This document shows positions 32,743-49,934 of a stretch of 64,000 nucleotides of DNA, in pieces. The stretch's first letter is position 1. The number at the start of each line of letters is the position of its first letter. Made by a program: the position numbers and the translations under genes. Under the pieces are notes generated by a model, which did not search any database, was not told the origin of the DNA, and worked only from the letters and a program-made list of their open reading frames with translations. The stretch is from Cladosporium halotolerans (taxonomy: Eukaryota), in the NCBI RefSeq assembly GCF_011745625.1, contig NW_027191456.1, forward strand, positions 62,001 through 126,000, given 5' to 3'.

Positions 32743-33984
32743 TTAGATGCTGTAGGAGGAGGGAGCGCCAGAGCCCGAAGCGCTGTCGTCGCTGCCGGAA
32801 GAGTACGAAGAGGGCGCGTCAGAGCCCGAGGAAGGAGAGGACTCAGAGCTGTCAGAGCTGCCAGAGTAGTCGCCGCCAGCGCCAGCGGAACCAGAGCTGC
32901 CAGCCTCGCCGGATGCAGAACCAGAAGCCTCGCCAGACGCGGAGCCGCTAGCCTCGCCGGAAGCAGAGCCAGAGCTAGAGCTGCCGCTTTCACCAGAAGG
33001 AGAGGACTCGGCGCCCTCGCTGCCAGAGCTGTACGGGGACGGGGCGCTGGAAGAAGAGTCGGAACCCTCAGAACCCTCCGAGCCAGCATCGGGAGCAGAG
33101 GGAGAAGCCTCGCTGTCAGAGCCGCCAGAGCTGTAGCCGCCGAGTCCAGACTCGCCAGAGCCCTCGCTGGAGCCCGAGCCGGAGCCACCGAGACCGCCGG
33201 AGCCACCAAGGCCACCGAGGCCACCAAGACCACCGTGAGAAGAGCCGGAGCCGGAGCCGCCGAGACCACCAAGGCCACCGAGACCGCCGTGGGAAGAGCC
33301 TGAGCCGGAGCCGTGGCCACCGAGGCCACCGAGGAGGCCACCGAGACCAGAGCCGCTGCCGGAGCCGTGGCCTCCAAGACCTCCGAAGCCACCAAGGCCT
33401 CCGGAAGAAGAGCCGCTGCCGGAGCCACCAAGGCCGCCGTAAGATGAGCCGGCGCCAGAGCTGGAGCCACCGAGACCACCACCGAGGCCTCCAGTGGGAA
33501 GAGGGATGGAGGAACCGCTGCCGCTGCCGCTGCCACCGAGGCCACCAAATCCACCGAGACCACCGGAGCTCGAGCCAGAGCCACCGAGGCCACCAAATCC
33601 ACCAAGACCACCGCTGGGCGAAGCAGAGCCGGAGCCACCGAGGCCACCAAGACCACCAAGGCCTGCTCCGACCGAGGCAGATCCAGTGGGGTACGGAGCA
33701 GCAGCAGAAGCGTCAGCGCCGCCAGAAGCAGAGCCGCCGGCCGATCCGCCAACAGAGCCGCTGGCAGATCCGCTCGCGGAACCAGTAGTGAGAGGAGCAG
33801 CAGGGCTGGCCTCAGTGCCGCTGCCGCCGGAGCTGTATGAGCCTGGGGCGGAAGGGCTGCTCTCAGAGCCAGAACTGTAGGAGTCCGGAGCTGAGCTGCC
33901 GGAGCTGGAGTCGTAGCTTCCCTGGGGCAGGGGAGCGGCGGCCACAAGGGCGAGAAGGGCGGAGAAGGCGATGACGTTCTTCAT
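32743..33984 (-). CDS. Secreted Gly/Ser-rich repetitive protein (413 aa)
   Basis: Signal peptide MKNVIAFSALLALVAA|APLPQ; strongly biased codons; central GGLGG(F/L)GGLGG repeats; acidic Ser-rich flanks. Confidence 0.85.
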   Translation of the reverse strand: MKNVIAFSALLALVAAAPLPQGSYDSSSGSSAPDSYSSGSESSPSAPGSYSSGGSGTEASPAAPLTTGSASGSASGSVGGSAGGSASGGADASAAAPYPTGSASVGAGLGGLGGLGGSGSASPSGGLGGFGGLGGSGSSSGGLGGFGGLGGSGSGSGSSIPLPTGGLGGGLGGSSSGAGSSYGGLGGSGSGSSSGGLGGFGGLGGHGSGSGSGLGGLLGGLGGHGSGSGSSHGGLGGLGGLGGSGSGSSHGGLGGLGGLGGSGGLGGSGSGSSEGSGESGLGGYSSGGSDSEASPSAPDAGSEGSEGSDSSSSAPSPYSSGSEGAESSPSGESGSSSSGSASGEASGSASGEASGSASGEAGSSGSAGAGGDYSGSSDSSESSPSSGSDAPSSYSSGSDDSASGSGAPSSYSI

Positions 33985-47630: not shown

Positions 47631-47860
47631 GGCGGCTTCGGCGTGCGCAACGGATGGTTTACACACTCGATTCAATGGAAGGAACAATCAGCCTATCAGA
47701 ACCGTGCTCGGGGCCCAAATGCAAGCTTCGACATCTGGAGACGAGCATCTAATCGCACATTCGCAAATCCAAATACTATATATTCTTGTACATGTGTATC
47801 CGCGCTAAACGCAAAAACAATCGCAACCCACACCTCCGCACCCTCCACATTCAGCAAAGG

Positions 47861-49934
47861 TCATTGATCGCTCCCCCCAGTCTGCCCCTCAACCCTCCCC
47901 TCCTCCCCTTCTTCGCCCTCCTTCTCCCCACCCCCACCACCCGTCACAACCCCCCAACCCCCCTCCGCAATCTCCCTCCCCCGGAACTTAATCAGCACAC
48001 CGACCACAATCGGCCCGACAATCGTGTTGAACAGAATCGCCCAGATGGCAATGTTCAGGCCCGCGGACGTCACGTAGGACGTCGAGTTGTACCCGATCTG
48101 CACGATGAGGAGGCCGATCTCGCCGCGCGCGACCATGGCGGAGCCGAGGAGGAAGGCGGGCGAGAGCGTTTGGGTGATGGAGGGGCGAGGCGAGGACTTG
48201 TTGCGGCGGAGGAGGTCGGCGAGGGGGATTGTGCTGCCGACGATGAGCTGGGAGGGGTGTTAGTGAGGTTGTTGTTGGGTGTTTTCGGGGTTGGAGGTGA
48301 TAGGGATGGAGAGGCTGGGGATCGCAGGTGCGGAAGGAGGGAGATTTGGAAATAAGGTTCAGAGGTGCAGGGCTGAATGAGCTGGTGATGAGGGTGGCGT
48401 GGATGGTAGCAGCAGAAGTAAGTAGGGGCGGGAAGGAAGATACAGGATCCCAAGTCCTCAGAGAAGGTGAGAATGAGAATAGCCAAGATGGTAGCAGCAG
48501 CAGCAGTAAGCAGGCCCAGGAGAAGAGAAATACGGGGACGTAGTTCTGATGAGGTCAAGATGATGATGACGAGGACGATAGTAGCAGGAGCAAGTAGGTG
48601 CCAGAAAGAGATACCCAAGTCGTATCTCTCTTCCCAAAGCCTACTAATGCTCCTTCCGTTCTCGCGATCTCCATCTTGATTCCCCTCATCCTGGAACACT
48701 TCACGATCCACCCGAATTTCTCTCTTCTGCAGCCTGCCGACTTCTGCTGCTTCCACCCACACTATGCTCATATCCAAGTTGAACGCAAAAGAATGTCGTT
48801 CACTTACCTTCGCGAACAGCATAAGCAAAGAATACACAATGCCACGCCAGACAGTCTGGCCATCCCAAAGATCCAGGAAAGGAATTGCAAAGCCAATGCT
48901 GGCGAAGAACAACGGCTCCATGAGGTACCTCTGCACATCCGAGCAGTACAGCTCGAACGTATGCACGAACGTCGGGCTCTTGTCGACATTCTGCTCGCCT
49001 TCTTCGCGCGTGAGGACAACGAACGGACCCTCGGGATGCTTGCTCGGCAGGTAGGTCAGGAACGAGCCTGCGAGAAAGGCGCCGAAGAGAACGCTCGTGC
49101 CCGCGTACGCAGCGATGGAGATGAATGCGCAGAGGACCAGGACCATCAGGCCGACGTTCGACAGGTGATCGTAGCGGGCGAAGCGGTTCTCGATGAAACG
49201 GCGGAAAAATGGAGCCAGGGCGTATTTGGTTAATACTGGGGTTATGGCCGCCATTAGGATGGAAGCCAGGATTGGTCGGCCGATGAGCCAGCCTAGGTTG
49301 ACGTTCCCGCCAGACTGGATACTGCCCAGGTCGTGGATGACGCTCGACATGACCAGGCCGGAAACATCGTCAATGACCGCTGCGCTGACGAGCACGGTGC
49401 CGACTCGGGTTTGGGAAAGATCAATCGACTTCGAAGCGCCTCCGATGACAGCGAACGTGGTGCCCAGACTGGTCGTCGATAGGGCTGCTCCGATGATGAA
49501 GGTCTCGACGGGCCCAAAGCCAAACCCCAGATAGAGGAGCAGATAGGAAAGGCCGATTGGGAAAATGACGCCGGTGGTGGCGCCAATGAAGCTTAGAGAG
49601 AAGTTCTGCTTCAGAAGGTCCATTCGCGTGGTCAGGCCACCTTCGAAGATGATGAGGATCAAGCCGATGTAGCCAATGGCCAGGAACGTCTCCTGCCATT
49701 CGGCATGCAAGATGTTTGCAAGAGGCTCGCCATAGATGATTCCGACCGCTATTGGGCCAATAATGCCGGCTCTGATGACGATCGAGGACAATGTCTCGGC
49801 CAAGGAAAGGAAGGTGAAGAAGGATATCAAGATCAAGATCTCGACGACTGCATGGTGGGTAAGTCTGGATGTCCGCGCATGGTTTCGAGAGCTCACTCAC
49901 TGGATGGCTCTTCATAGGCCAAGAAGTTTGCCAT
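47861..49934 (-). CDS. Cation/H+ antiporter, CPA2 (NapA/KefB-like) family, 3 exons
   Basis: MANFLAYEEPS|IVEILILISFF; ALSTTSLG, AAVIDDVSGL, FGAFLAG, FFASIG, LFAK|LIVG, MVARGEIG; introns ~49849-49900 and 48248-48807. Confidence 0.88.
48300..48790. repeat. Degenerate ~80-92-bp repeat units in inverted (fold-back) arrangement inside the antiporter intron
   Basis: Unit anchors ATAC at 48440, 48530 and 48611, with inverted anchors at 48622 and 48714; centre AGAGATAC-ccaagtc-GTATCTCT. Confidence 0.75.

Follow-up and report, generated by a model that had tools for sequence, protein, structure and literature searches.

The window, the 64,000-nucleotide stretch of Cladosporium halotolerans DNA analysed here, carries on its minus strand a gene of the Na+/H+ exchanger family (PF00999 Na_H_Exchanger, E 1.4e-30), whose three exons yield a spliced product of 486 amino acids; a protein search places its nearest named relatives in Aureobasidium (80–85% identity). 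Coding exon 1 (49901–49934) encodes MANFLAYEEPS, a peptide identical in orthologues, and is followed by an ordinary 53-nt intron (49848–49900), placed from its signals and from orthologues, with no RNA joint seen across it in run X15. Exon 2 (48808–49847) holds the domain match and ends in the residues LFAK, and coding exon 3 (47861–48247) runs from LIVG to the stop codon of the 486-residue protein. Between them lies a second, phase-0 intron of 560 nt with GT–AG ends (48248–48807, minus strand), recognized from an RNA contig that skips it and from its shared position in related loci.

The start of exon 3 (48200–48247, minus strand) reads LIVGSTIPLAD here and LIVGIWxPxW in relatives; a crude count by pattern puts Trp at the G-x-W position in 64 of 69 full-length homologues. 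This start belongs to a part of the transcript that is rich in C and poor in G (about 48100–48600), and the composition flips to very G-rich at 47800–48000. Two orthologues (L022 and L032) are without intron 1 and retain the short intron 2. Downstream, a chromate-transporter ORF without introns (PF02417; 46118–47630, plus strand) is convergent with the antiporter, about 230 nt separating the two stops, and read-through from it would transcribe the antisense strand towards the 560-nt intron. Elsewhere in the window, 32886–33773 holds a complex array of 9–54-nt tandem repeats that is probably coding.

Removal of exactly 48248–48807 is seen in one long-RNA contig (depth 3.3) of X15, the single RNA run compared at the locus together with three DNA runs (X4, X9 and X14; four of 23 runs in all), and this joint confirms the splice sites first proposed, in phase 0 after the Lys codon that separates LFAK from LIVG. 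The 5' splice site is GTAAGT (48802–48807), the sole such donor word on the transcribed strand; the branch-point word is CACTAAC (48259–48265, branch A at 48260) and the 3' splice site CAG (48248–48250), both predicted to be unpaired. GT–AG ends, a branch word and removal from RNA, in that one contig at depth 3.3, mark it as a U2 spliceosomal intron. X15 has no cover within the intron, an observation that carries no evidential weight. A stwintron was considered and rejected, as the transcribed strand has a single canonical donor word and a single branch word and the RNA joint is that of direct removal. A search for an intronic snoRNA or other Rfam RNA gave no family match (best E 0.44 and 2.9, far under gathering), and the transcribed strand of the intron contains no C box (RUGAUGA).

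An intron after the same Lys codon occurs in 8 of 29 related metagenome loci (7 of them distinct); 18 of the 29 are without intron 2, and the remaining 3 end too early to tell. Comparison of intron length among orthologues, suggested in the initial annotation, gave 51–68 nt against 560 nt here. The presence of a short intron at the same site in relatives indicates that the site is older than the species and that about 500 nt were added in this lineage; on this comparison of loci, the location after the Lys codon is an older shared site and tells nothing about the insert. The 560-nt fold-back intron is real and unusual for this genome; the lengths of other introns in the window were looked at by a crude signal scan alone.

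Repeat units and predicted fold

The intron consists of five clear related units of about 81–94 nt and one weak unit (U0), two of them in opposite orientation, in agreement with the initial description of three or four units facing two; the anchors, at 48443, 48533 and 48614 against 48622 and 48714, all lie within 3 nt of the positions first given. In transcript order, the donor is followed by the purine-rich units Ue and Ud, a 7-nt loop, the pyrimidine-rich units Uc, Ub, Ua and U0, the branch point and the acceptor. Ue, the outer 5' arm (48701–48790), is judged from self-alignment and fold to be probably a chimera whose 5' part mirrors Ua and whose 3' part mirrors Ub, and Ud, the inner 5' arm (48619–48700), mirrors Uc with a score of 46, reached by none of 500 shuffles. 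The axis lies exactly where it had been read, AGAGATAC-CCAAGTC-GTATCTCT at 48607–48629, an 8-bp perfect inverted repeat around the 7-nt loop (48615–48621). Self-alignment places Uc, the inner 3' arm, at 48549–48618, Ub at 48462–48548 and Ua, the outer 3' arm, at 48377–48461; Ub includes a short GCT run (48492–48495) whose length differs between strains in the reads. U0 (48290–48376), delimited by self-alignment and strain comparison, is mostly unpaired and the fastest-changing part of the intron, and just one of its five unit pairings reaches z 3. Tandem Repeats Finder left the unit array undetected.

The units of the 5' arm are each closest to their mirror partner (Ud–Uc 46, against 33–35; Ue–Ub 55, Ue–Ua 44 and Ue–Uc 23), as expected if mirror units are sister copies. 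Such a pattern is predicted by a block copied in inverted orientation, or by later selection or conversion; a plain inversion of half the array would not give it.

Aligned with each other (48473–48614 against 48622–48771), the arms show 108 complementary columns, 23 mismatches and 30 gap columns, and the score of 92 compares with a mean of 31 and a maximum of 47 among 300 arm-wise dinucleotide shuffles, which establishes the significant inverted self-alignment on which the fold-back claim depended. Folding energy also proved better than that of shuffled controls: the transcribed strand has a minimum free energy of -182.7 kcal/mol, which none of 100 whole shuffles (z -5.3) and none of 60 arm-wise shuffles (z -5.0) equalled, and the opposite strand reaches z -3.0 and z -3.8, respectively. 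Because the fold beats arm-wise shuffles on both strands, composition alone is insufficient as an explanation. The initial interpretation held in part: a long imperfect hairpin in the pre-mRNA is well predicted, and none of the three roles proposed for it gained support. The duplex is very imperfect and patchy, with pairing over 75% of the 5' arm and a longest helix of 12 bp. The predicted fold leaves intron nt 300–385 looped out and, at nt 67–70, exchanges Ua for Ub as the pairing partner; the unpaired probability is at least 0.91 across both the branch point and the 3' splice site, and the 5' splice site is predicted to be paired unless held open.

Among 8316 windows over 864 kb, including the stretch analysed here, the 560-nt intron has the highest raw inverted score, and its composition-corrected z is the second-highest among 48 top candidates. 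Most other high inverted scores came from C-rich/G-rich composition flips. Many places in the genome change within a few hundred bases from C-rich to G-rich sequence and score as inverted repeats on composition alone (L072:7534–7976, L108:5599–6085, L095:3795–4290 and others). The top composition-corrected z in the sample, 15.5, belongs to an inverted repeat whose arms, each of about 92 nt, are separated by 300 nt (L074:3974–4464; G000:C57:143974–144464). Two other inverted matches are one linking the leader regions of a divergent gene pair, which to the eye begin like histones H4 and H3 (L097:6173–6579; G000:C68:176173–176579), and a match of z 10.7 apparently in or near coding DNA (L083:5552–5923; G000:C57:235552–235923).

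Origin of the insert and variation among strains

We regard it as reasonably probable that the intron was expanded in this lineage by tandem and inverted local duplication, is spliced at the expected sites, is losing units, and has no selected hairpin function. The starting point would be an ordinary intron of about 55 nt, older than the species, enlarged by local DNA copying errors. A unit of about 87–97 nt would first have multiplied in head-to-tail fashion, and some three units would then have been copied as a block, in inverted orientation, beside the original, giving a fold-back of roughly 250 bp; snap-back or template switching is a way to copy a block in inverted orientation. The insert sits between the donor and the branch point, leaving branch point and acceptor untouched, so that the intron can still be removed and the protein stays unchanged. 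Thereafter, the repeat would decay through point changes and through slippage between similar units; about 97 nt of the 5' arm would have been lost from this genome, with the result that two units fused and one 3'-arm unit was looped out.

Possible sources of the units were tried and rejected. The ancestral intron and its exon flank gave no profile match on 7 orthologous introns or on the gene's own intron ends (best pairwise z 3.2 among 46 comparisons), and the gene's own 5' mRNA gave a borderline match for Ud alone, with unsupportive controls. Antisense hammerhead-like words (CTGATGA at 48547, GAAA before the axis stem) were also discarded, since stems I and II cannot form, as judged by eye, and there is no Rfam match.

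The length of the 5' arm differs between strains. The X4 contig maps from 50100 to 48741, continues through 72 unaligned letters and resumes from 48765 onward; X4 has 97 extra nt in the 5' arm, flanked by a 25-nt repeat (intron nt 43–67). That 25-nt core (48741–48765), which maps twice in X4 with the 72 unaligned nt between, is the putative crossover of a one-unit deletion. It ends where the predicted fold changes partner (nt 67–70), which would explain the chimeric Ue, and the extra letters of X4 are unaligned at 80%, which argues that they are not a fresh copy. X14 crosses the stretch in one piece without a break of the X4 type. From these alignments, the older allele probably had three units facing three, one of which this genome and X14 would have lost when similar cores slipped against each other; that the 97-nt difference is a loss here is an inference.

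The translation of a second haplotype's intron is known from database gene calls that run through it (P0001, P0122 and P0121), and fits X9 and X14, with a one-codon deletion and the listed substitutions. P0001, P0121, P0122 and similar matches are database proteins predicted by gene-calling programs that ran on into fungal introns; P0121 derives entirely from intron sequence and is probably no real protein, but serves as a record of strain variation. In the long-range stem, this haplotype has 10 inferred changes, of which 4 keep pairing, 4 break it and 2 depend on silent changes that a translation does not reveal; the compensatory test, which covered one haplotype, by mapping its amino-acid changes to single-base changes, and 40 of 170 rows of strain variants, demonstrated 0 compensatory changes among the 10. 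Mirror mismatches of G-U against A-C stood at 5:2 and 3:3, which is not significant.

X9 differs at 13/211 positions of the 5'-arm piece, and the piece that spans exon 3 and the 3' part of the intron differs at 59/727, against 5/475 and 4/367 in exon 2, indicating that the intron is far more variable than exon 2. Flanking non-coding DNA has 14/257 downstream of the gene and 13/433 upstream, and the arms, at 13/211, are therefore not visibly more conserved than these flanks.

Several observations count against the reading of duplication and decay. The long intron is retained in all three other DNA runs; folding on the transcribed strand exceeds that on the opposite strand (z -5.0 against -3.8); and 800 kb of DNA elsewhere contained no fold-back of equal raw score. 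The arms also change more slowly than the unpaired tail, with 20/138 against 8/18 codons changed in the second haplotype (Fisher p 0.005) and at most 21/410 against 14/79 nt in X4 (p 0.0004), two counts that are not independent, 8 differences being common to both. This roughly threefold slower change of the arms relative to the U0 tail could mean that the arms are constrained or homogenised, or that the tail, lying in a C-rich tract, is hypervariable.

Alternative readings

The fold-back might act as a zipper stem: accidental in origin, it would now be needed because it shortens the 548-nt distance from donor to branch point, with selection keeping the arms complementary. The principle has been demonstrated for yeast RPS17B (PMC2536676), and here the branch point and acceptor are predicted to be unpaired, the arms are less variable than the unpaired tail, and the structural donor–branch distance, with the splice signals held open, comes to about 70 steps, near the 51–68 nt of the orthologous introns. 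We nevertheless consider a zipper unlikely. All 25 composition-matched segment-wise shuffles folded to distances as short or shorter (21–67 steps), so that the earlier suggestion of a structure bringing the splice sites together gains no specific support from the modelled fold distance and describes a possible role; moreover, no compensatory pair was demonstrated and 4 of the 10 stem changes break pairs, one arm appears to have lost a whole unit, and the arms in X9 are no more conserved than the non-coding flanks.

Mobile DNA offers another source for the insert. MITEs and foldback transposons are recognized by dispersed copies and by terminal inverted repeats with target-site duplication. The insert could be a relic of such an element, or of an introner-like element, that inserted into an intron already present, its other copies since lost or diverged beyond recognition, a reading that we hold to be decidedly unlikely even though the lineage-specific gain of about 500 nt and the inverted symmetry agree with it and repetitive elements are reported to have inserted into regular introns in three fungi (PMC3609843). 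DNA searches of the genome with the whole intron and with one unit matched this locus alone, leaving the proposed MITE, foldback or introner relic unsupported; three sequence patterns likewise matched this intron alone; and a unit profile run over 800 kb, about 3% of the genome, gave a best outside match of E 0.24, against E 2.4 on reversed control DNA. Power in these searches is low at the divergence seen between units or below about 80% identity, which limits the failure to find dispersed copies, and the last two patterns each recover one of the six units; together, the searches rule out a young high-copy family, and an old scattered one could escape them.

Inverted arms are present, although the ends of the insert would be placeable only with an empty allele. 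The axis of symmetry lies away from the midpoint of the intron, whose two ends do not form paired terminal repeats. Like an introner-like element, the intron is longer than regular introns and has a stable predicted structure; many near-identical copies in unrelated genes were not found (the searches returned this intron alone, and the profile none in 800 kb), and its position is not newly gained, a short intron occupying the same site in 8 of the 29 related loci, hence no intron gain. RIP was considered and rejected, its signature being absent (TpA/ApT 0.69, GC 52%), which also speaks against a mobile relic.

A hairpin RNA or milRNA precursor must fold back, as this intron is predicted to do, and in models of this kind the hairpin would be a Dicer substrate for intronic small RNAs, its 5' arm perhaps targeting the spliced mRNA of the same gene. 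A single 21-nt window (intron nt 46–68) pairs in register at 20 of 21 bases, and Ud matches the spliced exon1–exon2 junction at 35 of 52 positions, a match equalled in 5 of 500 shuffles and in 3 of 800 genomic chunks (about 0.025 allowing for six units). The reading still seems very unlikely. The longest helix is 12 bp, the intron sequence is not conserved, and Ud alone among the units matches the junction, where the unit profile scores 3 bits, a value reached by 2 of 12 hydrophobic control chunks. In 1 of 17 orthologous exons an unrelated site gives Ud a score of 38, and the hairpin's internal duplex is stronger than the Ud–junction pairing (-69.0 against -57.8). Fungal mi/milRNAs wholly within introns are reported to be very rare (PMC9757828). 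Equal scores to that of Ud arise elsewhere in membrane-protein coding DNA, and the junction lead is borderline. A more specific model, which we would call a long shot, makes the intron a young hairpin RNA of about 250 bp in the longer allele, formed from an amplified and inverted copy of the spliced 5' coding end, whose Dicer-made small RNAs would pair with the exon1–exon2 junction of their own mRNA; if true, the ion-transporter gene would limit itself through this loop, and arm length would vary between strains.

Scarcely credible is retention of the intron in some transcripts as a 186-codon in-frame extension: the exon-2 frame does run without a stop across the intron here, within a 608-aa stop-to-stop frame, but the idea is largely refuted by stops at intron codons 17 and 169 in the second haplotype (P0001, P0122, P0121), 560 is not a multiple of 3, hence exon 3 would be out of frame, and homologues are limited to one gene call (P0121), with no Pfam match. 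A protein search with the intron frame found none at E ≤ 10 among 2384 candidates, and two further searches gave P0121 alone.

Significance and related systems

If local duplication followed by unit loss is indeed the history of this intron, its import is modest: it would be a clear, datable case of a compact fungal intron growing tenfold and then shrinking by unit loss, with natural alleles that differ in arm length. It also carries a caution, that a strong intron folding z-score is obtainable from duplication alone. The two alleles form a ready pair for asking whether fold-backs affect splicing or feed the RNAi pathway, and small RNAs, if present, would make this a rare intronic fungal hairpin RNA early in its history.

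The intron resembles the introner-like elements of Dothideomycetes (PMC3609843) in exceeding regular introns in length, in its canonical splice signals and stable predicted structure, in decaying over time and in belonging to the same fungal class; it differs in being single copy as far as searched, at a shared position, in being built of tandem units, and in showing 0 compensatory changes among 10 stem changes. With the symmetrical sister stwintrons and cropped introns of Hypoxylaceae, it shares imperfect inverted repeats of about 73–80% identity and a short central palindrome. Those introns are described as having terminal repeats of 45–55 nt and as proliferating to new genes, and their symmetry was not required for excision (PMC8469720); here, by contrast, the repeats are internal, multi-unit and local, and the intron is without a canonical internal donor or branch word.

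The zipper stems of the long Saccharomyces introns of RPS17B/RP51B (PMC2536676) likewise shorten the effective distance by pairing after the donor and before the branch point; function there is proven by mutants, whereas in this intron shuffled sequences shorten the distance just as well and the predicted stem derives from a lineage-specific duplication. Finally, although the intron has short helices and no convincing homologous target, and its hairpin is known by prediction alone, it has in common with Drosophila hairpin RNAs (PMC10317233) and fungal mi/milRNAs (PMC9757828) that young, long inverted repeats with units in numerical flux can originate within transcription units already in place.
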